Source: an uncultured Verrucomicrobiae bacterium (GTDB lineage: Bacteria > Verrucomicrobiota > Verrucomicrobiia > Chthoniobacterales > JAFAMB01). From it: a stretch of DNA of 64,000 nucleotides. The stretch lies in the NCBI GenBank assembly GCA_963813025.1, contig CAWEXO010000008.1:327030-391029 (forward strand). Reading direction: 5' to 3'. The notes below the pieces were generated by a model that searched no databases, was not told where the DNA came from, and was given only the letters and a program-made list of their open reading frames with translations. This document shows, in pieces, positions 14,808-33,899 of this stretch. Within the stretch, counting starts at the first letter, position 1; each line of letters starts with the position of its first letter. A program made the translations under genes and the position numbers.

Positions 14808-17017
14808 CTACTTCGTGAGCGGCTTATTCATCGACGCTTCGATCGACTGGCCTGGAGCGTAGGGGAACTGCAACGACTCGTAATACGCAAGATCGTGCGG
14901 CGGCTCGGCATGGCCGGCCGGCAACGGCTGTTTCGACAGGCTCTGGAAATAGGAAATGGAGGCGTCACGCCACCACTGGGCCTCGCGGTGCTGAACGGCC
15001 AGAAACGCCGCCACCTGACCAAAGCGCTCGGCGTCGACATAGGGCTTCATGCGCTCCCATGTCTGTTGCATCCCGGCCACCTGGGCAACGCCGAGATCAT
15101 AGTGCTCGACCAGCGAATCCCAGAGCGTTTCGCCGGAGGAAACAGGATAATCCCAGGGCTCATGATGGAACCAGAGCAGGTACTTCTCGTCGAGCGCGTG
15201 CGGATCGCCGAACTGGGCCTGCACCTCCGGGGCGTATTGGGCAATCGCGTCGGTTCCAGTGGCGGTGCGGTCGAAGCCAATGCCGTTTGCATCGGCCTTG
15301 CTGTAATACACGGGGTTCCATTCCGGCCGCTTGAGATTGGCGACCCACGGACCTGGTCCGTAATGGTGACCGGTTGCCATCTGATGATGCAGCCCGAGCG
15401 GCGTCATGTAGTTCACCACCGCCTCGCGCGAGATCATCATCATGTCTACCACCGGCTTCACAAAAGCCGGGTCAGGCGTGAAGGTCTGCGCTGCCCATTC
15501 CGCGGCGATCGCGCGCTCATCCGCCTGGGGGTCCCAGGCGAGCCGGCCCATGGCGTACCAGTTGGCCTGGTTAAAGATACCATTGGTCCAGTCACGATCC
15601 GCGCCAATGTTAGAAACGCCGGCCATGCCGGTGAGCTTTTGCGGCCAGACCTTGCCTTCGATCACGCGGGCGACGGTTGATCCCTTGCCGCGAGCATAGG
15701 TGTCCGCGTCGAGCACCTCCTGCCAGAGCGCACCGAGATAGACGAGGTGCGTCGCCTGACCAAGGTATTCCTTGGTAATTTGCACCTCGAGCGTCAGCGG
15801 GGTCTTTTGCATCGCGCCGAACAATGGCGAGAACGCCTCGCGAGGCTGGAAATCGATCGGCCCGTTCTTTACCCAGATGGTAACGTTGTCGTGGAACTGT
15901 CCGTCGAGCGGCTTGAATTCATTGAGCGCCTGGGCGGCGCGATCGACCTTGCTCTGGTCCGAATAGACGAACGCACGCCACATCACGATGCCGCCATGCG
16001 GGGCCAATGCATCCGCCAGCATGTTGGCGCCGTCGGCGTGGCTGCGGCCGTAGTCACCCGGCCCCGGCTGTCCCTCGGCACTCGCCTTAACGAGGAAACC
16101 GCCGAAGTCGGGGATGAGCGCGTAGATCTCGTCCGCCTTGTCCTTCCACCACTGCTGCACCTGCGGATCAAGCGGATCCGCGGTCTTCAGGCCGCTCAGC
16201 ACGATCGGCGTGGCGAAGTTGACGGACAGATAGACTTTAATGCCATAGGGCCGAAACACCTCCGCCAGCTTGGCCGCCTTCACCAGAAACTCATGACGGA
16301 GAATGTTCGGAGTCGCGTTGACGTTATTGAGGACCGTTCCGTTGATCCCGATCGAGGCATTGGCGCGCGCATAGTCGCGGTAGAGCGGCTTGACGTAGTC
16401 GGGCAGCGTCCACCAGTCCCAGATCGACGATCCCGCATAACCGCGCTCCACAGAGTCTGTGAGATTGTCCCAATGATCGAGAATCCGCAGGCCGAGCTTC
16501 GGGAGGAACTCACGTCGAGATCGCTCAGGCTCTCGCCAGTTTGGATGCGTCGCAGGAATGCATAGGTTCCGTAGAGTACGCCGAGGTCGTTCTGGGCGGC
16601 AATCACGGTTGCACGGTGGCCGTTCACCTGCACACTGCGAATGAGATAGCCATCCGTGCCAAGAGTGTCGAGCGGCAGGCCCAAGGTCGCAATCAGCGGC
16701 AGCGACGTCGGCGTGCCGACGATGATGGCGCCGTCGCGGTCGACGGCAGAAGCGTTCGATGGGGCCGCCCCAAGCAGGCCGGAAAGACCGCGCATGAGTT
16801 CATCCTGCGCCGCATCGAGCGTCGGGCTATGGCTTCCCGTGGCGAGCGCTCCGGCTTCCCCCGCGAGCGCCGTTCTCGCCGATTCGGCGAGCGGCCTGTA
16901 GCGCAGCCAGAGATCATAGCCGTCTTCCGCGCGGGCCGGCTCCGCGGCGCAAATCGCAATGGCTGCCAACACCCCAGCTAGTCCAGCAAATCGCCACTTA
17001 TGCGTACACGTATTCAT
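14808..17017 (-). CDS. aguA: Alpha-glucuronidase GH67 with signal peptide and one frameshift near 16500
   Basis: AEDGYDLWLRY, ERGYAGSSIW, YARANASIGINGTVLNNVNA, KNGPIDFQPRE, EVQITKEYLGQ. Confidence 0.9.
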
Positions 17018-17275
17018 AGTGATATATATATCCATCTTATTTTTGGTTTGTCTGAAACAGAAAATCCCGATGTAATAAATGCTGATCGCCACGCGACACA
17101 GTATGCGCGCAGCTGGGCCTCTATGCCGGAGGTTGCATTTGTAGCAGCGAGCGACGTCAATGCTGCTTCACGACGACCGCAATTCGAAGGGCACCACTCA
17201 TGGGCGAGAAAAGTTGGCTTTGATCAGGGTTTTTATACATAATATTTGATAGTCAAGCCAGGGCGGACGACCAGC

Positions 17276-17626
17276 CTAGCGATGAATCGGTACCTTCCGA
17301 TGCCAGTTGCTCAAGATGCGCCCATCGGTGTGGGGCTGCTTTGCCCATCGGATAGCGTTGGCAATGACGCGATGGACATGGGCGTGGTGGTAGATCGGAA
17401 AGGTTTCGTGTCCAGGTCCAAAGAAGAAAATGCGGCCACGACCACGCTGGAACGTGCAGCCGCTACGGAATACCTCTCCTCCTTTGAACCATGACAAAAA
17501 AATCAGCTCCTCGGACGCGGGGAATATCAAAAGGTTCCCCGTACATTTCCGATTGCGGCACTTCGAAATAGGGAGGCAAGCCTTCTGCAATCGGGTGAGA
17601 TGGGGTGGATCACCCAGACTCGCTCC
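17276..17626 (-). pseudogene. ThuA-like protein, C-terminal fragment truncated by IS256
   Basis: ERVWVI..HPIAEGLP..EMYGEPFDI..SWFKGGEVFRSG..GPGHETFPIYH. Confidence 0.82.
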
Positions 17627-17627
17627 A

Positions 17628-18480
17628 ATACCTTTGGGATCAGTTCGAAGCCCTGGAGCCGGCGCCAATGCTTTTGGGCTTCCAGGCCGAGTTTAAAGAC
17701 CATGGTCAGTGTCGCGATTCGTGAACCGGAACCCTTGGTTCGATGAGTTCGCAGCCGAACGGTAGCGAAGGTGGATTCGATGGGGTTGGTGGTCCGTAAA
17801 TGCGGCCAATGTTGGGCCGGGAAGTCGTAAAAGGTAAACAGGACTTCTTGATCTTTCTGCAGGCACTCGCAGGCTTGAGGGAATTTAGCCCGGTAACTGG
17901 AGATGAACTGATCATAGGCGGCCAGAGCTGCTTTGCGGGTCGGCGCCAGGTACATTTCATGGATCAGTTGCTTGGCCTTGCCCTGAACGCTCCTGGGCAT
18001 TTTATCCAGGATATTAGCCGTCTTATGTACCCAGCAGCGCCTCGGTAGCTCCGATCAAAACCAGCACGCAGGTTTCGCTGAAATCTCCAGTCGAGATCCC
18101 TTTCAGGTAAAGGGCTGGAATCAGTGCATCAACGCTCTCGAGCCCGACGCATGTACTTGGGCAGAATCGCACTGGAAAATCGACCCCTGTCACGATGCCG
18201 GACCCGCGGCTGACGAACCCGGATCGGACCGACTCACTAACCACTTCCCGCTCCGGCAGGTGTCCATTGCGTACCACCAACCGCTGTCCATTCTCATCCC
18301 GTCGATCCTTGTGGAATTGGATATAGTCGATCACCTCATTCTCGATTGCCGCCTGTAACAGCTTCCTGGCTCCTTCTTGCAGCAACTGCTCCAGGAACGG
18401 CTTTTCTTGATCTTTTACTCGCTCATCAAGCGAGACCACTTTATTCTCTGGCACTGGTGTATCCTGATACGGCTTCCATG
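17628..18480 (-). mobile_element. IS256-family remnant with deletions and frameshifts
   Basis: EGARKLLQAAIENEV, RNGHLPER, LYLKGISTGDF, LRTTNPIESTF. Confidence 0.88.
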
Positions 18481-18572
18481 CTGAGAATGGATTGTTCCAG
18501 GGGTTCAGAAACCCCGGTGACCTCCCTTCGGAACAAAAGCAAAAGGCGTCCGCGATACGCGACACATGCGGG

Positions 18573-19394
18573 CTACCGGATTGTCACTAAGGTACCGATC
18601 GGAGTTTCGAAAAACAGGTTTCGGGCCACTTCTTCCTTGCCGACTCGAATGCAACCATGACTAGCCGGCCGGCCGGGATTGAACCCCTGATGAATGCCGT
18701 ATTCACTAAAAGAAAGTCTCAAGAAATAGGGCATAGCGACCTTGTAGAGAGAAGACATCCTTTTGCGTTCTTTGTCAGTGACTAAGTAATTTCCCGGAGG
18801 CGTATCGAAGCCTTTCCGTCCCGTCGATATTCGACCCTGCACGACGGGGGAACCATCCTTTAAGAGAACAACTTTTTGTCGGGCAAGTTCGACCTCAATC
18901 GCAAAGTGCTCTGCCCGAGGGTCGCTGTTAAAAAGTTTTTGGGCGAGCTCAGGATAACCGAGCCGGGCGGCGTATTGGGCGGCTACCCACCCCCAGCTCG
19001 AAGGTGCGAAACGGGCCGCTCCGTGCTGAAGCAACAATTCACAAGCACTTTGATGTCCTAAGCTGGCCGAGAGAATGAGGGGTGTTGCTCTGGTTTCTTC
19101 CGCGAAAAAGTGAGCCAGTACCGGCTTGAGTTCGTGCAGCACCTCGAGTCGGGCGGCGGACATTTCGATGAGCCCATCCGGATTGGCCCCGCTATTCAAA
19201 CTATAGCGAAGCTGATCCAGATCATTGGTTAAAACCGCTTGAGCCAGCTCGTCTTGTCGCAGATCAACCGCTTTCCCGGCAACCTGCTGACAGATGCTGT
19301 TTAGTAGATAGAGAACGAGGATGAAGGCTGACCCCACAGTCTTCTGACTACAGTCTAACTCTGCGAGCTTAACGGTGAAGCAACCGACCTCCAA
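18573..19394 (-). CDS. Ankyrin-repeat L,D-transpeptidase (YkuD) family protein
   Basis: TPLILSASLGH..ELLLQHGA ankyrin; ISTGRKGFDTPPG, IHQG..ASHGCIRV catalytic motif; start uncertain. Confidence 0.85.
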   Translation of the reverse strand: MEVGCFTVKLAELDCSQKTVGSAFILVLYLLNSICQQVAGKAVDLRQDELAQAVLTNDLDQLRYSLNSGANPDGLIEMSAARLEVLHELKPVLAHFFAEETRATPLILSASLGHQSACELLLQHGAARFAPSSWGWVAAQYAARLGYPELAQKLFNSDPRAEHFAIEVELARQKVVLLKDGSPVVQGRISTGRKGFDTPPGNYLVTDKERKRMSSLYKVAMPYFLRLSFSEYGIHQGFNPGRPASHGCIRVGKEEVARNLFFETPIGTLVTIR

Positions 19395-26294: not shown

Positions 26295-27764
26295 TCAATT
26301 CTTAGCCTTGGATGTGGCTGGTCCGGCAAGGAAGAAACTACCCAGATCCAGATCCAGGTGCAACGCTCCAGTCGTAACCCGCTCCTGCAAAATCGCCGCA
26401 GCCGTAGCAAGATTGCGGGCGAAACGTGCTAATTGCGCCTCGCTGAAGGTGCATTCCTGATGAAAAAATCCAGAAAGCACCGGGCTCTCCTTCCATTCTT
26501 GAGCGAAGGCAACGAGCCGACGGTACGTTTCCGGATGCAAATGGCAAATCTGATTAAGATAGCCTTTCGCTTGAAATGTATTCTGATTCAACAGGCCAGC
26601 ATCGTTATCAACCAAAATCAAACGTCTAATCACCACGCCCTGTGGTTCGGTCGTGTCGTTTTTCGCCGGCCGGGTAGTGATATGGCCCCCGTTCATCTCG
26701 TAAATATATTTATAGTCGGAGATGTTTCCGCCGCTGAGCCGATCGGACTGCGCCATCAAATAGTCCAGCACGATCATTTCACTCATATCGCGCATCGCAA
26801 CCAAGCGCTGGACATTGGCTTGATTGAATTCGGTCGAGGCCAGTATTGCGTGCACCGGTCGAGGATCTGCCATGTCCCGAAAACCACGCACGCTGCCCAG
26901 ATTTGGGCCGGCTCGAAGCCACTCGTCGTAGTGCTCCTCTCCCCGGGTATTCACCAGGAGTGCACCGTAAATCTGCGTGAAATCATTTGTGAATAGCGTG
27001 GTCGCGACCGACGAACCGCGCGGATTTTGATAGTAACCGTTAAACAGGTTCCAGCTCTTCCCGACCAGACCATGGATACCCATTTCCGCGGCCAGGCGGA
27101 CGACCTTTTTATGCTGCTCAATATCCATGGTCCTGAGCTCAGCCGGCTGGACCAGACAGATATCACCCAATGCTCTGGAAACGTGGTAATAGCCCAGGAT
27201 TGAGGCGGTTGAAGTGGAGGTGAAATGGTTATCAGTCTGTTTAAATTTGGCTAAATCTTTCCCGGTTTTCTCCACTTGCGAACAATAGGCGGCCGTCTCC
27301 GTCGCAGGTTTTGCGCCGCCCGCCGGAATTTCAAATAATTCGACGGCTGCGCTGGTGCTCTTCTGCTTTGGACAGACTGCGACCGCCGCGTTGTCCGGCG
27401 TATTACCTCCTTTGTAAAAATCATAGTGTGCCAGCAACTGTTCCGTCGCTCGATCATCTGCGCCATTGGCTCCGCGATATGCACCGGAAGAGAGGTGCTT
27501 GGGAATAACCGCGATCTCGTCCGGACGCCCATCCGGCACGGCGTGTCTTATCGTTTCGAACCCCCGCGCAGCGGACCGATCGAGTGACCCCTCGTAAGGG
27601 TCGTTTGCTCCCGCCGCGTTAGTCATTGGCCATCCGAGCCAGCAGAGGCTAACCAACACTAAATTACTTGCGGCAATCAACGAACGACCTGCTGGAGATT
27701 GCGAGGTGGTCCGCCCGGCGAGCCTTGTTTTTTTGGACAGAATTACCCAAATCATGACAACCAC
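26295..27764 (-). CDS. Exported protein with Fam20/Four-jointed-like kinase motifs
   Basis: N-terminal hydrophobic segment; AKFKQ, YYHVSRALG, EMIVLDYLMAQSDR, LILVDNDAGL, ICHLHPETYRRL. Confidence 0.6.
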   Translation of the reverse strand: MVVMIWVILSKKTRLAGRTTSQSPAGRSLIAASNLVLVSLCWLGWPMTNAAGANDPYEGSLDRSAARGFETIRHAVPDGRPDEIAVIPKHLSSGAYRGANGADDRATEQLLAHYDFYKGGNTPDNAAVAVCPKQKSTSAAVELFEIPAGGAKPATETAAYCSQVEKTGKDLAKFKQTDNHFTSTSTASILGYYHVSRALGDICLVQPAELRTMDIEQHKKVVRLAAEMGIHGLVGKSWNLFNGYYQNPRGSSVATTLFTNDFTQIYGALLVNTRGEEHYDEWLRAGPNLGSVRGFRDMADPRPVHAILASTEFNQANVQRLVAMRDMSEMIVLDYLMAQSDRLSGGNISDYKYIYEMNGGHITTRPAKNDTTEPQGVVIRRLILVDNDAGLLNQNTFQAKGYLNQICHLHPETYRRLVAFAQEWKESPVLSGFFHQECTFSEAQLARFARNLATAAAILQERVTTGALHLDLDLGSFFLAGPATSKAKN

Positions 27765-27854: not shown

Positions 27855-28811
27855 GTGACTTTTTGGTACGTCAGCTTTCACGGAGGCAGCGCCAACACTG
27901 ACTGCAACAATATCCACGTTTATACGATTGACGGACGAGAACGAGGTAAGGCGCTCAATCGCCAAAGTCTGCCGGCGCCCTTGTCGCTTCGAGAATTGCG
28001 CGGCTTTACCTTCGGGCCGGATGGCGACCTTTACGTGTTAAACGCGTATTATCCGTTCAGCCAGGTTCTGCGATTCAACGGGCTAGCTAATCAAAATGGG
28101 CAACATAACTTTAAAGAAGTTTTTGTTGCTCCGGACAATGAAACGAATCCAGGGCTCAGCCACCCTTTTAATCTTCTCTTCAATCCGGAAGGTCATTTAC
28201 TGGTTTCAAGCCAGAACACGAACGTGGTCACCCGCTATTTCGGTTCAAACAATCCGGCTGGAGCAGCGGGAACGCCGATGCCTCCGTCGGGAGCTTCCGG
28301 TCCGCCGGCTATCCCGGGATGTCTTGTTTTATCATCGAAGCAGACACCTGAGGGCATCCGCTCCGTTCGGGACATTGTCTTTAATACCGATGGAAGCTTG
28401 TATGTCGCGGATCGAGATGACCGTTCTGTGAAACAATATGATGGAAATACGGGAACCTACATGGGAAAGATTGATCTCATTAATGCCGGCAAACCCGTTC
28501 ACCTGCTCCTGCATGCTGGACGACATCTGCTTTTAATTGGAGACGAGACGAACGAGTGCGTTTGGGAGCACAATTTTACGAGCGGCTCGACTCGTGTACT
28601 GATTGAATCCGGAGCCGGTGGGTTAAAGAACCCGAGTGGCCTTGCCTTCGGCAACGACGACCTGTTGTATGTAGCGAGCCGAACGGAACGGAAGATCCTG
28701 CGATTTGACCGGCAAGGCCAACCTGCCGATCCGGATGCATTTATTGCTAATCTACCGGACGAGCCGGAATTTCTTCAGTTGGTGACCCTGGCGGATAGCA
28801 ATAGTCAATAG
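27855..28811 (+). CDS. NHL/Vgb-type beta-propeller protein
   Basis: Repeated blades: RGFTFGPDGDLYV, PFNLLFNPEGHLLV, DIVFNTDGSLYV, PSGLAFGNDDLLYV; start uncertain (27819 or 27855). Confidence 0.8.
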   Translation: MTFWYVSFHGGSANTDCNNIHVYTIDGRERGKALNRQSLPAPLSLRELRGFTFGPDGDLYVLNAYYPFSQVLRFNGLANQNGQHNFKEVFVAPDNETNPGLSHPFNLLFNPEGHLLVSSQNTNVVTRYFGSNNPAGAAGTPMPPSGASGPPAIPGCLVLSSKQTPEGIRSVRDIVFNTDGSLYVADRDDRSVKQYDGNTGTYMGKIDLINAGKPVHLLLHAGRHLLLIGDETNECVWEHNFTSGSTRVLIESGAGGLKNPSGLAFGNDDLLYVASRTERKILRFDRQGQPADPDAFIANLPDEPEFLQLVTLADSNSQ

Positions 28812-28960
28812 CCTATTGCCAATAGCCAATGATGACCGATAAACCAATAGTCAGGGCAAAAACCAGACTTCAATGAGTTTTTCACACGCCCCCAGAACTA
28901 CCCCTGTCCTAAATCGCGGCGACCGTCGGGTATTGACCATCGGCTATCGGCTATCAGCCA
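28799..28960. repeat. Inverted arrays of degenerate heptamers (CAATAGC / GCTATCG)
   Basis: caatagt-caatagc-ctattgc-caatagc near 28800 and ctatcgg-ctatcag near 28945, between convergent genes. Confidence 0.55.
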
Positions 28961-30096
28961 TGCAGCGACTTCCAATGTTTCCGCCATGCCTTAAAATCGG
29001 CCAGCGTGCCTTCGACCATTTTTTTCGCTGCGCTCTCCAACTCCGACGCCGATAGCTCGGCGACCGCTTTCCGCAATCCGTCGGGCTGACTGTATAAGAG
29101 GTGCACGCTGGCAGTTTCGAAACCCATCGCGCGGAAAAGGCGCCGTTGATCGATTGCCTCCAAGTTCTCCGGCGCGAGCTCCTGCAATTCGGAAATCTCG
29201 ATTCGGCCTGTCTCGGACAAAATTGGTCGAATTAACCAGTCGCCAGTCAGCTGGACATGCGGACTTGTCGGCCGCGCTGGGGAACCAAGGAAATCCATGA
29301 TGTGCAGCGGACCCGGAGCCTTGCCCTTTGCCCAAAGAAGCGCGGAAGCCGCGCAGGACTTGGCCTCCCGGGCGATTGGCCCGCCTTGCCACTCGGCGAA
29401 GGCAAAGATTCTCCGATGACCAAGACTGCCGAGACCCTTCGGTCTTGCTCCAGTTTTGGTGACTCGCAGCTGAACCTGCGCCCCTTTCGGAAAATGAGAG
29501 CGAAGTCTTGCGGCTGCTTCGGCCGGTAAATCAGTTTCCGACGAAGCAGGCTCGGTTCTATCCTGAAGCCAGTGGTCCCAGAAAACCTTTGGCTCTTTCA
29601 AGGCAGCGCGAGTAAGGCGGAGAAGCCAGGCATTTGTTTTTTCGAGAACAAATGGCTGGCCGCTGGTAGTCGACGCGCCCTTCCGATAGCCTCTCCAGAT
29701 CTCCCGGACTGCTTGAGAAAATGAAAGTCCTAGACCGGGAGCCCCTTTGCTCGCCAGTCTCACGCTTACGGCGATGCGAACAAGATCATTCGGAAAGGCG
29801 CAGATACCGGCTTCATCGAAATCATTGACTCCCCAAACCAGCCGTCCTTCTCGATCTCGCCAGGTGCCGAAGTTTTGGACGTGAAGATCACCAACTCCTT
29901 CGACTCGATGAAGTTTAGCCAGGTCGGCGCAATGCAGATTCCAGAGCTCGGCCCAGCGATAGAACGTGGCCCGAAAGAAAGCAAAAGGGTTGCTTGCCAT
30001 TTCCTGATGCTTAGCATCCAGGTCTGGCTGATAAAGCGCGATCTGTTGACTGACCCACGCTTCATAGGAAGCAGTGGCACTCACTATATCTTGCAT
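28954..30096 (-). CDS. DUF2252 family kinase-like protein
   Basis: MASNPFAFFRATFYRW, GDLHVQNFGTW, WGVNDFDEA, GLGSLGHRR. Confidence 0.85.
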   Translation of the reverse strand: MQDIVSATASYEAWVSQQIALYQPDLDAKHQEMASNPFAFFRATFYRWAELWNLHCADLAKLHRVEGVGDLHVQNFGTWRDREGRLVWGVNDFDEAGICAFPNDLVRIAVSVRLASKGAPGLGLSFSQAVREIWRGYRKGASTTSGQPFVLEKTNAWLLRLTRAALKEPKVFWDHWLQDRTEPASSETDLPAEAAARLRSHFPKGAQVQLRVTKTGARPKGLGSLGHRRIFAFAEWQGGPIAREAKSCAASALLWAKGKAPGPLHIMDFLGSPARPTSPHVQLTGDWLIRPILSETGRIEISELQELAPENLEAIDQRRLFRAMGFETASVHLLYSQPDGLRKAVAELSASELESAAKKMVEGTLADFKAWRKHWKSLHG

Positions 30097-30120: not shown

Positions 30121-30684
30121 TCAGGGAATAGCTCGAGCAATCTGATCAGCCATGGTTCGCACAGCCTGCGACAGAAGCGCGGCCAAGCCGCCTTCATCGC
30201 CCAACGTCCAGCCGTTCAGCGAGATATTTGATACTCGGCTCACCAGGGGAACATCGCTCCCGGCGGGAAGAATCTGCCAGGTCGCGGACAATACGACTTG
30301 GCCATCGGCGTTTCCCTCGAACTGGATCAGGCGGATGTTCACGTCATACCGGTGCTCAGAGACCTGCGCGGAAGGTTGAAATCCGGTCGCCCCGATGCCC
30401 CGCGCGCGGAGTTCATCGGCTACCGCTCGAGCGATCCCCTGATCCAGAGGCTCAGCCCAACGTCCGGTGGTGGAGTAGTGTACCTGGTTGCCCTTTCCCA
30501 TGCTGGCGAGATTTGCTCGCGCAAGATAGGCCGGCACTTGAACACGACGAACAAAAACCGTATTCCGAGCAGAACGAACAACGGGAGCGTCGCCTGCCGG
30601 TGTCAGAACATAGAATTTCGCCAGGGGTTCTGTGGTCGCGCAGCCGATCAGCAACAAAGGTAGAAGGCACAGGCGTTTGCGCAT
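30121..30684 (-). CDS. PqiC-like ABC auxiliary lipoprotein
   Basis: Lipobox LIGC, FYVL, VPAYLAR, RWAEPLD. Confidence 0.88.
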   Translation of the reverse strand: MRKRLCLLPLLLIGCATTEPLAKFYVLTPAGDAPVVRSARNTVFVRRVQVPAYLARANLASMGKGNQVHYSTTGRWAEPLDQGIARAVADELRARGIGATGFQPSAQVSEHRYDVNIRLIQFEGNADGQVVLSATWQILPAGSDVPLVSRVSNISLNGWTLGDEGGLAALLSQAVRTMADQIARAIP

Positions 30685-30707
30685 GAATCGGGTCCGGCGA
30701 AGAGGTG

Positions 30708-31724
30708 CTACTGTTGGTTCTTCGCGGGCTTGCGACCAAAAAGGATTGAGTTGGGATTGCGTTCCAGGAATTCCGACAACCGCTGCAGCGCATCGGCCGC
30801 CGCGGCAATCTGGGAGAGCGTGCTGTCCAGTTGATAACGGAAACCGGAGGAAGGCTTCAGGAGCCGATTCAGCTCGGCGGTCGATGACTGAAGCGATTCC
30901 ATGCTCTTTTTCGCAGCCGCTAGAGTTGGATTGAGATTCTCGGAGATCGGATTAAGCTCGGTGTCCAATTTCTTCAGGGTCGCGGTGAGTTGATCGAACG
31001 ACTGACGAACACTCGTCAGAGTACCTTTGAGGTCCGGACCATTTACGAAGTTATTGAGACCTTCCGACGTTTTGGCCAGCGAGGCGCCAAGTTGATCCAA
31101 CTTCATTGCGTCGATCCCCTCCCGGGCGCTCACGATCAAACTCTCCAGGTCCTTTGAGAGAGCGAGAAAATCGACATTACCAATGTTGCCAATGGCTTTT
31201 GTCAGATTTCCGAGGATGGCCTCGATATCTGATGGCTGAACGGGAATTTCGAAATAGTTTTTCCCGGCAAGCAATTCCGGGTGCAAAATCGCCGGAGCCG
31301 GGTTCTTGTAGTAGTCTAATCCGAGATAAAGCTGACCGCTGATCAAACTCTCAAAGTCCAAACGAGCACGCAGCCCTGCCGCGATGCGCTTCTTATGCAA
31401 CTCCGGACTAAAGAGATCCACCTGCGCACCAAGACCTTTCACGACGAGCGTACTGTCGATCTGGTAAATCACTTGCACAAAGGATGGCTGACCTTCGCCG
31501 CGAAAACCCAGGAGAACTCGCGTAACTTTGCCGACGTTGACACCCTTGAATTTCACGTTTGACCCGACTTGTAAACCGCTCACGGACTGTTCGAAGAACG
31601 AAACATAATCCTGTTTTTTGGCGAACAAGTTAGTTGAGCCAAAAAAAACAATTGCGCCGATTGCGATGAGGATTGCCCCAAAGACAAATGCGCCGATCAA
31701 AGTAGGATTTGCCTTTTGACTCAT
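30708..31724 (-). CDS. MlaD/MCE family protein
   Basis: SVSGLQVGSNVKFKGVNVGKV, LERNPNSILFG. Confidence 0.9.
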   Translation of the reverse strand: MSQKANPTLIGAFVFGAILIAIGAIVFFGSTNLFAKKQDYVSFFEQSVSGLQVGSNVKFKGVNVGKVTRVLLGFRGEGQPSFVQVIYQIDSTLVVKGLGAQVDLFSPELHKKRIAAGLRARLDFESLISGQLYLGLDYYKNPAPAILHPELLAGKNYFEIPVQPSDIEAILGNLTKAIGNIGNVDFLALSKDLESLIVSAREGIDAMKLDQLGASLAKTSEGLNNFVNGPDLKGTLTSVRQSFDQLTATLKKLDTELNPISENLNPTLAAAKKSMESLQSSTAELNRLLKPSSGFRYQLDSTLSQIAAAADALQRLSEFLERNPNSILFGRKPAKNQQ

Positions 31725-32578
31725 CGCGAAATCGCCGTCTCCTCATCCTGTCTGCTTTGATCAGGGTGAGCAGCGTTCCGGTTCGTCGCCTCAGCCGAGT
31801 CATTGCCTTCTCCGCGCAGCAAGAATTCGCGGACTTTTGGATCACTCTGGCCTTCTTTCACCAGCTCGTGGGGATTACCCTGGGCAATCATTCGTTTGGT
31901 TTCGGCGTCAAGGAAGATGGAAGTATCGGCAATGGTAAAAATGGAAGCCAGTTCGTGAGTAACGACCACAATGGTTGTACCCAAACTATCGCGCAAACGA
32001 AGAATCAACTCATCCAATCTCCGGGAGTTAATCGGGTCAAGCCCAGCGGAAGGCTCATCAAAGAAAAGATAGGCTGGATCCAGGGCCATTGCCCGCGCCA
32101 GTCCCGCGCGTTTGCGCATTCCTCCGCTAATCTCCGATGGGTAAAAGTCTTCGAACCCTTTGAGTCCAACCAAAGCTAACTTCAAAGAAACGATCTCCCG
32201 GATCTCCGCGGCGTCCAACTTCGTGTACTGCTCGAGAGGCAAAGCGACATTTTCGGCCAGGGTTCGATCACTCCATAAGGCACCCCCCTGGTAAAGAACC
32301 CCAAAAGTCCGCTGAATCCGCTCGCGCTCCTCTTCGGAAGCCTTCGAGAAGCTCTCATCGTGATAGAGCACGTCTCCTTTTTCTACCTCTTTGAGTCCGA
32401 TCAAATACTTCAGGAGAGTGCTTTTACCACAGCCGCTCCCGCCCATAATAACCATCACCTGACCCGTCTTTACCTGAAAGCTGATATCGCGCATCAGGAT
32501 GAACGATCCATAGCCCATCTCGAGGTTTCGGACCTCAATCGCAGGACTTTCCTTACTATCCGTTTCCGGGTCTGGCAT
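31721..32578 (-). CDS. MlaF-like ABC ATP-binding protein
   Basis: GGSGCGKST, ISGGMRKRAGLARA, FFDEPSAGLDP. Confidence 0.92.
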   Translation of the reverse strand: MPDPETDSKESPAIEVRNLEMGYGSFILMRDISFQVKTGQVMVIMGGSGCGKSTLLKYLIGLKEVEKGDVLYHDESFSKASEEERERIQRTFGVLYQGGALWSDRTLAENVALPLEQYTKLDAAEIREIVSLKLALVGLKGFEDFYPSEISGGMRKRAGLARAMALDPAYLFFDEPSAGLDPINSRRLDELILRLRDSLGTTIVVVTHELASIFTIADTSIFLDAETKRMIAQGNPHELVKEGQSDPKVREFLLRGEGNDSAEATNRNAAHPDQSRQDEETAISR

Positions 32579-32613
32579 GAGCTTGCTGGGCAAAAAAACA
32601 ACGGTAGCACATT

Positions 32614-33774
32614 TTACAAATTACCCATTTGTTGGATCACATCGATCGCTGCGTCAGACGCAACGATCCAGGTGATCGCGAGAACCACCGCCGAGGTCGC
32701 CGCATTGCCCACGGCTGAGGCGTTGTTCCCACAGCTGATCCCGCGCTGACAGCCGGTCAACGCAACGATCACGCCGAAGACAGCGCTCTTAAATACTCCC
32801 GTTCCGATATCGACCAAGCCCATCGCGTCGAGGGTCTGATTCCAGTATTGAATCCAAGTCAAATTAAGTATTGAGGTACCGACCACCGCACCACCGATGA
32901 TGCCGATAAAAATCGAGTAAAGACAGAGGAGCGGCATCATGAAGAGAAGGGCAATCACTCGAGGCGCCACCAGGAAATCCAGCGGAGAGATGGCCAAGGT
33001 CCGCAAGGCATCGATCTCCTCCGAGACCTTCATACTGCCAATCTGCGCCGCAAAAGCGGCTCCGGTTCTGCCCGCCATGATCACCCCGGTCATGATCGCT
33101 CCCATTTCCCGCGCCATCGCCACCGCGACCAGATTGGCGACATAAATCCCGGCGCCGAACTGACGCAACTGCACCGCTCCAACAAAGGCGAGAATCAAAC
33201 CCGTCAGGAAACTGATCAGGCCAACGATGGGCAAGGCCTGAGCGCTGCATTCCTCCATGGTCAGCCAGAGAAGCCGCCAATCGAAAGCCGCACGACCCCG
33301 GAGAATCCGGCCGAAGCTCAGGATGCATTCACCCACGAACGATAGCGTAACTTGAATGCCGCCGGCCAACCCCAGCGTCGCGGCGCCTAGACGATAAAAA
33401 AGGGAGCGATTTCCCGGTGTTTTCTTTCCTGTCTGCTTCTCGGGGACGGCCTCCGAAAGCGCCATTAAACTCGTTATTTCGCGGGGCACGCCGGACTCGT
33501 TGAATTCCAAGTGATTCTGTTGGCACCAGTCCTTTAGTTTCGAAAGAACGATGAGCAGGCTGGTATCCCATTGACCAAGCTCAGAAAAATCAAGCCGGAG
33601 GGTCCGGGCGCCGTCCCGTTTATGCGCCACTTCCTTGAGCAGCTCGTTATCTCCAGTTCTTTGCTCGGTCTTTAAGATCCATTCTCCTTTGAAAGCGATA
33701 ATCAGATCGTTATTCTCCTGGCGAATCTCCGATTGCCGAGAGGAAGCCGATATTGCCGGAGAAGGAGCGCTCAT
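32614..33774 (-). CDS. MlaE-like ABC permease with an N-terminal STAS-like domain
   Basis: REMGAIMTGVIMAGRTGAAFAAQIGSMKVSEEIDAL. Confidence 0.92.
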   Translation of the reverse strand: MSAPSPAISASSRQSEIRQENNDLIIAFKGEWILKTEQRTGDNELLKEVAHKRDGARTLRLDFSELGQWDTSLLIVLSKLKDWCQQNHLEFNESGVPREITSLMALSEAVPEKQTGKKTPGNRSLFYRLGAATLGLAGGIQVTLSFVGECILSFGRILRGRAAFDWRLLWLTMEECSAQALPIVGLISFLTGLILAFVGAVQLRQFGAGIYVANLVAVAMAREMGAIMTGVIMAGRTGAAFAAQIGSMKVSEEIDALRTLAISPLDFLVAPRVIALLFMMPLLCLYSIFIGIIGGAVVGTSILNLTWIQYWNQTLDAMGLVDIGTGVFKSAVFGVIVALTGCQRGISCGNNASAVGNAATSAVVLAITWIVASDAAIDVIQQMGNL

Positions 33775-33899
33775 GTGGATTTGCTCATCGAACGGCTCAA
33801 GGACAAGAGCTTCCTGTAAGACCGAAATCAAGCAAGAGCTTACCATTCCGCACAGCCTGCATCGCTCGCAAATGGCGTAAACATTGCGAGCGATGCAGG

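Follow-up and report, generated by a model that had tools for sequence, protein, structure and literature searches.

A predicted Fam20-fold kinase-like protein family encoded in Chthoniobacterales and Bdellovibrio genomes

The locus and its kinase-like gene

The window, that is, the whole 64,000-nucleotide stretch of contig CAWEXO010000008.1 analysed here, carries on its minus strand a kinase-like gene with a predicted Fam20 fold (26295..27764), which runs for 489 codons from the GTG at 27764, the reading frame being as the earlier note on this DNA had given it. Residue numbering throughout follows this open reading frame and is counted from GTG 27764; the likely start is the ATG at 27755, which yields a protein of 486 aa, is preceded by a purine-rich stretch resembling a ribosome-binding site and is the position at which the database protein P0002 begins. 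The GC content of the gene (0.54) equals that of the window, and a promoter scan at the locus returned 0 sites, with terminators at chance level. A head-to-head gene on the plus strand (27855..28811), whose start lies about 100 bp from that of the kinase gene, encodes an NHL beta-propeller without a signal peptide, and a divergent DUF2252 kinase-like gene (28954..30096, minus strand; Pfam E 4.3e-24) is located two genes away.

The translation contains an N-terminal hydrophobic segment (residues 29-45) followed by the five motifs in which the earlier note had recognised the series of the animal kinases Fam20C and FJX1, all present and in the order listed there: AKFKQ (residues 172-176; 27237-27251, minus strand), YYHVSRALG (residues 192-200), EMIVLDYLMAQSDRL (residues 329-343), LILVDNDAGL (residues 382-391) and QICHLHPETYRRL (residues 405-417). 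The series goes beyond chance, since the window kinase has 248 homologs at E<=1e-3 and several of its residues are invariant in 75/75 representatives of the family.

Sequence family and distribution

The best 120 homologs are 57-100% identical to the window protein, and a profile of 110 sequences extended the family to 620 clusters at 50% identity, 307 of them with E<=1e-30. Residue counts refer to two sets: 75 representatives, comprising sequences below 62% identity, and 128 diverse members, comprising those of at least 410 aa among 142 new identifiers from the best 150 of the 620 clusters. No Pfam family was found for the window protein at E<=1 and no match in NCBIfam, and PDB sequence searches with the protein and three profiles gave nothing significant, the cytochrome c peroxidase rows (E>=0.12) being rejected as noise. 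The gene product is unannotated and belongs to a large family unseen by Pfam and NCBIfam.

The close branch was located at 38 GTDB loci, mostly in Chthoniobacterales/Verrucomicrobiota, with those outside Verrucomicrobiota in single Nitrospirota, Actinomycetota and Pyrinomonadaceae MAGs; the distribution is patchy, the gene occurring in 7/41 related genomes. The distant branches, reached through a paralog of 25% identity at locus L009, are rich in Bdellovibrio, with two copies in some, and were sampled at 80 loci forming 20 clusters at 60% identity, 54 of the loci belonging to a single cluster. The branch of the query is sister to one cluster paralog (FastTree, support 100). No kinase homologs were found in the plasmids, phages or viral contigs searched. 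At one locus (L042:5992-7620) the kinase gene is divided among three ORFs, by frameshifts or assembly errors. Bdt_0782 is a member of the family, and the membership of Bd0822 of B. bacteriovorus HD100 rests on the ortholog table of PMC3539863, in the available part of which the two genes are paired with an omega of 0.08; by this value Bd0822 is under strong purifying selection.

Predicted fold

The mature protein was modelled with AlphaFold from 120 close sequences (pLDDT 90.9, pTM 0.92). Foldseek returned 27 matches to the model at E<=0.001, among which chains of Fam20C and Fam20A rank first (E 6e-6, TM about 0.41-0.44), and VIA-align, run against a comparison set of 48,161 chains, placed hydra Fam20 first (Z 18.5, rmsd 3.9, 279 aligned), zebrafish Fam20C second (Z 17.6, rmsd 4.1, 282 aligned) and worm Fam20 third (Z 16.4, rmsd 4.3, 287 aligned). 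Other members of the same atypical-kinase group all scored below Fam20, namely PI4KIIalpha (Z 15.9 and 14.0, the best 2.6 Z below the top match), CtkA (11.0), actin-fragmin kinase (10.8), HipA/HipT (8.4-10.6, HipT 10.6) and CotH (9.6), and the top 50 VIA rows are kinase-fold chains throughout, LicM2 excepted. For CotH, HipA, PI3/4-kinase and actin-fragmin kinase no match was obtained at the level of Pfam or sequence, the likeness being structural. CotH is itself a bacterial kinase known to act outside the cytoplasm and, to our knowledge, has hardly any counterparts there.

A Bdellovibrio homolog, 30% identical and modelled from a separate 75-sequence alignment (pLDDT 94.2), again gave Fam20C first in Foldseek (E 4.5e-7). 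The structural comparison that the earlier note had recommended upholds its proposal of an atypical kinase of Fam20 type, by two methods and, in Foldseek, with a second homolog; the other candidates it had named (CotH, HipA and the PI3/4-kinases, here PI4KIIalpha) are lower-scoring matches in VIA-align. On these models a bilobed kinase fold of the PKL superfamily, within the group of Fam20, PI4K2, HipA and CotH, is predicted with near certainty. FJX1 gave no row in the fold searches and no match in the local Pfam copy, and a search of viral folds gave no match at E<=0.001. Atlas feature scores, which serve as leads only, pointed to a bacterial PF06702 cluster (0.91) and, for the Bdellovibrio member, to Four-jointed/FJX1 (0.87) and FAM198 (0.86), these last two lying under 0.9.

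The PI4KIIalpha scores bear on the alternative of a PI4K2-like lipid or inositol-phosphate kinase, acting on the envelope lipids of its own cell or on the membranes of a eukaryotic neighbour. Three conserved lysines and several Arg/His residues suggest an anionic substrate, and the available part of PMC9758233 proposes a lipid-kinase role for Legionella families that lie close to the FAM20/CotH group. Nevertheless, Fam20 scores higher by both methods, the domains fused to members of the family are wall-binding rather than membrane-binding, and the carriers that have names, Chthoniobacterales MAGs and Bdellovibrionota, include no recognised host pathogens; we give this alternative a small chance.

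Active site

Residue roles were set by motif order in combination with the DSSP secondary structure of the model. K133, kept in 126/128 diverse members, and the loop rich in Ser/Thr that lies between the first strands of the N-lobe (27351..27368, minus strand) would be the equivalent of the Gly-loop. The beta3 motif (27237..27251, minus strand) holds the putative ATP lysine, K175, present in 75/75 representatives and 126/128 diverse members, and an extra lysine, K173, present in 72/75 and 121/128, at a position two residues before the ATP Lys that is as a rule small or hydrophobic. In one paralog clade K173 is replaced by Ser/Thr while K175 is retained, which argues for K175 as the ATP lysine. 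The alphaC-like helix (27165..27200, minus strand) has Ile189 at the presumptive position of the ion-pair Glu. The end of alphaE and the catalytic loop (26715..26780, minus strand) contain D334, Q339, D341, R342 and N347, of which D341 would be the catalytic base and N347 the second metal ligand; Q339, D341, R342 and N347 each occur in 128/128 diverse members. The DFG-equivalent DND (26592..26621, minus strand), found as DND/DTD in 73/75 representatives, includes D386, a putative metal ligand (127/128), and D388, which by analogy may be an ion-pair substitute of the kind seen in POMK (126 Asp and 2 Glu of 128). The C-lobe motif (26514..26552, minus strand) contains the near-invariant H408, and D334, Q339, D341, R342, G346, D386, K175 and H408 are all found in 75/75 representatives. 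The C....T..R motif that had been likened to the C-lobe of the animal kinases is present in the ORF, but its cysteine, C407, is not conserved, being present in 5/21 close homologs and not ranking among the five most frequent residues in 89 distant ones; it is the neighbouring H408 that does not vary.

The absence of Glu from the expected alphaC position, which had been remarked on for this one protein, proved to be family-wide: between the beta3 Lys and alphaC, Glu occurs in 0/75 representatives and Asp in 6/75, the branch of the query among them, and in the diverse set the same loop has no acid in 105/128 members, Asp in 17 and Glu in 7. In the query's branch, D178 might act as the acid in the alphaC Glu role. 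On account of the missing Glu the earlier note had left room for a pseudokinase, which is defined in the available part of PMC13519141 by the loss of the VAIK Lys, the HRD Asp or the DFG Asp. Such a reading is unlikely, since none of the three defining residues is lost and the lysine, catalytic Asp and metal Asp are all near-invariant among homologs, a conservation in keeping with the kinase claim. Loss of the alphaC Glu may be covered by N347 at the second-metal position together with D388, and the residue pattern makes an active transferase probable.

Relation to known kinases

Among the animal enzymes covered by PF06702, Fam20C is a casein kinase, Fam20B a xylose kinase and Fam20A a pseudokinase. 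The window family is like them in that they are its best structural matches, in its predicted export and disulfides and in the shared order of Lys, catalytic Asp and metal Asp; it differs in its catalytic-loop Asn and DND, its other Cys pattern, its wall-binding fusions and its bacterial origin, and structural alignments give only 14-17% identity. The PF06702 profile had no match in the window protein, 59 close homologs, 8 distant homologs or 30 long members, and none across 301 genomes of the phylum, though this last search carries no information, its control having matched nowhere either. In the available text of PMC4421793, E306, an Mn ligand particular to Fam20, is indispensable in Fam20C, and K285 and E311 form an ion pair, whereas E311 and E306 are without counterpart in most members of the window family; likewise, the four conserved disulfides of Fam20 (PMC5865150, available part) have no parallel in its Cys pattern. 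As the profile, E306/E311 and disulfide comparisons all failed, the family is new within a superfamily already known and does not belong to Fam20C. The kind itself is already known, since bacterial Fam20-like folds have been recognised: a bacterial PF06702-positive Atlas cluster has 258 members, mostly Myxococcota and about 333 aa long, from which the window family, at 440-500 aa and Pfam-negative, is set apart by description, and the Legionella families are a further case (PMC9758233, available part).

In POMK, a secretory glycan kinase that is active, Gly takes the place of the alphaC Glu and the Lys pairs with an Asp that occupies the DFG-Gly site, a pair that is dispensable (PMC5142810, in the available part). 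The window family likewise lacks the alphaC Glu and appears to carry a further Asp where DFG has its Gly, but the folds are distant (Z 5.3) and the Lys of POMK has moved to beta2, whereas the window family keeps the beta3 Lys; the resemblance is convergence, not kinship.

These comparisons also bear on a repurposed fold, either a pseudokinase scaffold or another chemistry, such as a flipped nucleotide (as in SelO and Fam20A), AMP transfer, hydrolysis or the use of a non-ATP donor such as polyphosphate. It would account for the missing alphaC Glu and E306 equivalent and for the extra Lys before the ATP Lys, and VTC genes flank 4/80 distant loci, though three of these four loci fall in a single cluster. 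Conservation of the catalytic Asp, metal Asn and metal Asp in 127-128/128 diverse members would, however, be needless for a pure scaffold, and the dispensable ion pair of POMK takes weight from the missing Glu; we regard a repurposed fold as distinctly unlikely.

No description of the window family was found in the literature searched, which included few subscription papers. It is not named in the available parts of the KINtaro table (PMC10870513), whose HMMs may include it unnamed, or of bioRxiv 10.64898/2026.09.18.752743, whose supplement families may overlap with it.

Export and domain architecture

A hydropathy heuristic predicts a Sec signal peptide (27606..27755, minus strand) with a basic N-region, a hydrophobic stretch at residues 29-45 (27630-27680) and an Ala-rich cleavage region containing the presumed cleavage site, and the same heuristic finds a signal-like leader in 113/121 distant homologs and 119/128 diverse members. 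Cysteines 203 and 438 (C203-C438) are present in 21/21 close members and 0/89 distant ones, four other Cys being lost along with them; the mature query has 5 Cys, the conserved pairs differ by branch, and the columns that co-vary in this way are probably disulfides. The leader and the co-varying Cys pairs agree with the exported protein proposed in the earlier note, and the protein is very probably exported.

The 120 close homologs divide into 53 with a leader but no C-terminal PG-binding-like domain, 53 with the domain but no leader, 1 that combines the two and 13 that have neither, of which some are shortened or mis-parsed; the domain was called with a custom profile, and Pfam PF01471 matches 16/59. 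The forms with the PG-binding-like domain are accordingly without a signal-like leader in 53/54 cases, and in a separate clade (P0128) an N-terminal PF01471 stands in place of the leader. SH3b is fused in 3/30 long members scanned, and in one protein (P0291) the kinase is fused to DUF2252. The window protein itself is without a wall-binding domain. The sole protein among the 120 to combine a signal with the PG-binding domain (P0066) has a core that groups with the signal-bearing forms, and may have arisen by recombination or be a chimera of assembly.

Export of the signal-less forms by an injection system was considered and is unsupported: T6SS Hcp was found in 0/5 genomes tested, and tube genes, present in 3/5 against a family background of 10/24, stand at background level, as they do in the comparison of kinase-bearing genomes with others (4/7 vs 6/18, p=0.38).

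Gene neighbourhood

Counts over the 38 close loci are not independent, since at 80% identity these loci fall into 11 clusters. The propeller gene adjoins the kinase gene in 14/38 of them (6/11 clusters) and occurs in 6/7 kinase-bearing vs 0/34 other genomes, a contrast inflated by kinship and adjacency. Its invariant columns are H9, R46, E47, R49, H103, R172, H216, R276 and E305, and this set of His, Arg and Glu suggests an enzyme or a phosphate-binding pocket. A YkuD L,D-transpeptidase is encoded within 6 kb in 14/38 close loci (4/11 clusters), an M23 peptidase in 2/38, and small PG-binding proteins in 4/38 close and 7/80 distant loci. The YkuD proteins (L037:4097-4882, minus strand, and 13 other close loci) are without a signal and have a long Lys/Ala-rich N-terminal tail, and the L,D-transpeptidase of locus L024 bears the PG-binding-like domain of the kinase. 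No match to this L,D-transpeptidase family was found in the genome of the window, which is 80% complete; the window does contain an ankyrin-YkuD fusion (18573-19394, minus strand; by Pfam), which gave no match and was rejected as a member.

At the distant loci both the propeller and the L,D-transpeptidase are absent (0/80). A gene for a secreted protein of PTP/DSP fold adjoins 36/80 (6/20 clusters at 60% identity; for example L105:4316-4924, plus strand, and L049:4931-5788, minus strand), and none lies near the 38 close loci. In this family Ala or Ser replaces the Arg of CX5R in 27/27 full motifs parsed, for which reason its members may not be ordinary phosphatases, and its matches to Pfam and PDB phosphatases are weak. 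A divergent DUF2252-like kinase adjoins 28/80 distant loci (3/20 clusters; for example L105:3172-4257, plus strand), and a second paralog of the kinase is found at 28/80. The DUF2252 gene of the window had no BLAST match among the DUF2252-like genes found in related clusters, and its place in the module is uncertain. A sister kinase-like family of about 345 aa occurs at 7-8 of the 80 loci (for example L085:2737-3774, plus strand, and L030:1416-2465, minus strand) and aligns to the main family with an hhalign E of 6.7e-5; its sequences combine, in 8/8, DNGG with an acid where alphaC begins, the reverse of the main family, and they lack a beta3 Lys in the place of K175, having instead an invariant Lys one strand earlier, as in WNK. 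Genes for VTC-domain, HlyD-like and DUF4956 proteins lie downstream of the kinase gene and convergent to it at four Bdellovibrio-like loci (L046, L048, L049 and L051). A DAO-family oxidase (for example L063:3643-4725, minus strand) and a histidine-phosphatase-like gene (for example L062:4337-4900, plus strand) were each observed at 5/80 distant loci.

The distant neighbours could be read as those of an exported Ser/Thr protein kinase, Fam20C/CotH-like, with periplasmic or surface proteins as substrates; the wall-binding domains would then merely position the enzyme, and the secreted PTP-like neighbour would be an eraser or reader. Consistent with this are the frequencies of the PTP-like, DUF2252-like and second-paralog genes given above, the fusion to DUF2252 in P0291, the paired divergent paralogs, which recall Fam20A/Fam20C, and the top rank of Fam20C chains in Foldseek for both models. 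Against it stand the missing Arg in all 27 PTP-like motifs, the lack of any PTP-like gene at the close loci and the failure to find a recurring substrate-like repeat protein among the neighbours, and we hold a protein kinase to be somewhat unlikely.

The propeller, together with the patchy distribution (7/41), would also fit an antibacterial or predation effector phosphorylating a target in another cell, with the cytoplasmic propeller as its immunity protein; the signal-less forms with PG-binding-like domains and the frequency of the family in Bdellovibrio, at times in two copies, point the same way. The literature search on Bd0822 found no description, its matches concerning other organisms. 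In the available part of PMC2797640, expression of Bd0822 relative to attack phase is 0.98 and 0.96 fold at 30 min into predation and 0.40 and 0.29 in host-independent growth, and its flatness on prey entry argues against a prey-invasion effector. Given, in addition, the counts for Hcp and tube genes, the confinement of the propeller to close loci (14/38 vs 0/80) and the enzymatic look of its invariant columns, an effector seems very improbable.

Proposed function

Our tentative preference, which from sequence and model falls a little short of an even chance, is for an exported active metal-nucleotide phosphotransferase that phosphorylates a cell-envelope glycan, likeliest peptidoglycan or a polymer tied to it. 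After Sec export, K175 would hold the phosphates of the donor with the assistance of K133 and K173, two metals would be bound by D386 and N347, D388 would stand in for the missing Glu as in POMK, and the hydroxyl of the substrate would be activated by D341. The least secure steps concern the class of substrate and the extracytoplasmic phosphate donor; for the former, we put a cell-wall or envelope glycan at roughly an even chance.

A wall glycan is favoured by the wall-binding fusions, the wall-enzyme neighbours, the POMK-like site and the top VIA match, hydra Fam20, a glycan kinase whose score is level with that of Fam20C to within 1 Z. The periplasm contains little free ATP, which counts against this reading, as do the lack of a wall-binding domain in the window protein, of the neighbouring L,D-transpeptidase family in its genome and of wall enzymes at the distant loci, the absence of a leader from 53/54 PG-domain forms and the absence of an E306 counterpart from most members. 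A Fam20B-type glycan kinase has been proposed as the older Fam20 activity (PMC5865150, available part).

More speculatively, and in our view doubtfully, the protein might be the core enzyme of an undescribed extracytoplasmic system, in which Glu-free Fam20-fold kinases would act on peptidoglycan or wall glycan with DUF2252 kinases, an Arg-less PTP-fold partner and possibly a non-ATP donor, as a bacterial counterpart, perhaps a sister lineage, of the glycan kinases of the animal Golgi. Because the family is closest in predicted structure to the Fam20 Golgi kinases, Fam20B and Fam20C among them, it bears on the origin of the Fam20 enzymes; wall phosphorylation, if true, would be a new peptidoglycan modification, and Bd0822 gives laboratory access to the family in B. 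bacteriovorus HD100.

Other features of the window

Transposase-like fragments, which we take to resemble IS256, were observed at 17276-18565 on the minus strand, and a glycoside-hydrolase-like gene at 14808-17092, which we take to resemble alpha-glucuronidase, is seemingly split, with two overlapping frames near 16280-16451. A Mla/Mce-type ABC operon lies at 30121-33846 on the minus strand, its auxiliary lipoprotein being identified by Pfam and the remainder read from the sequence.
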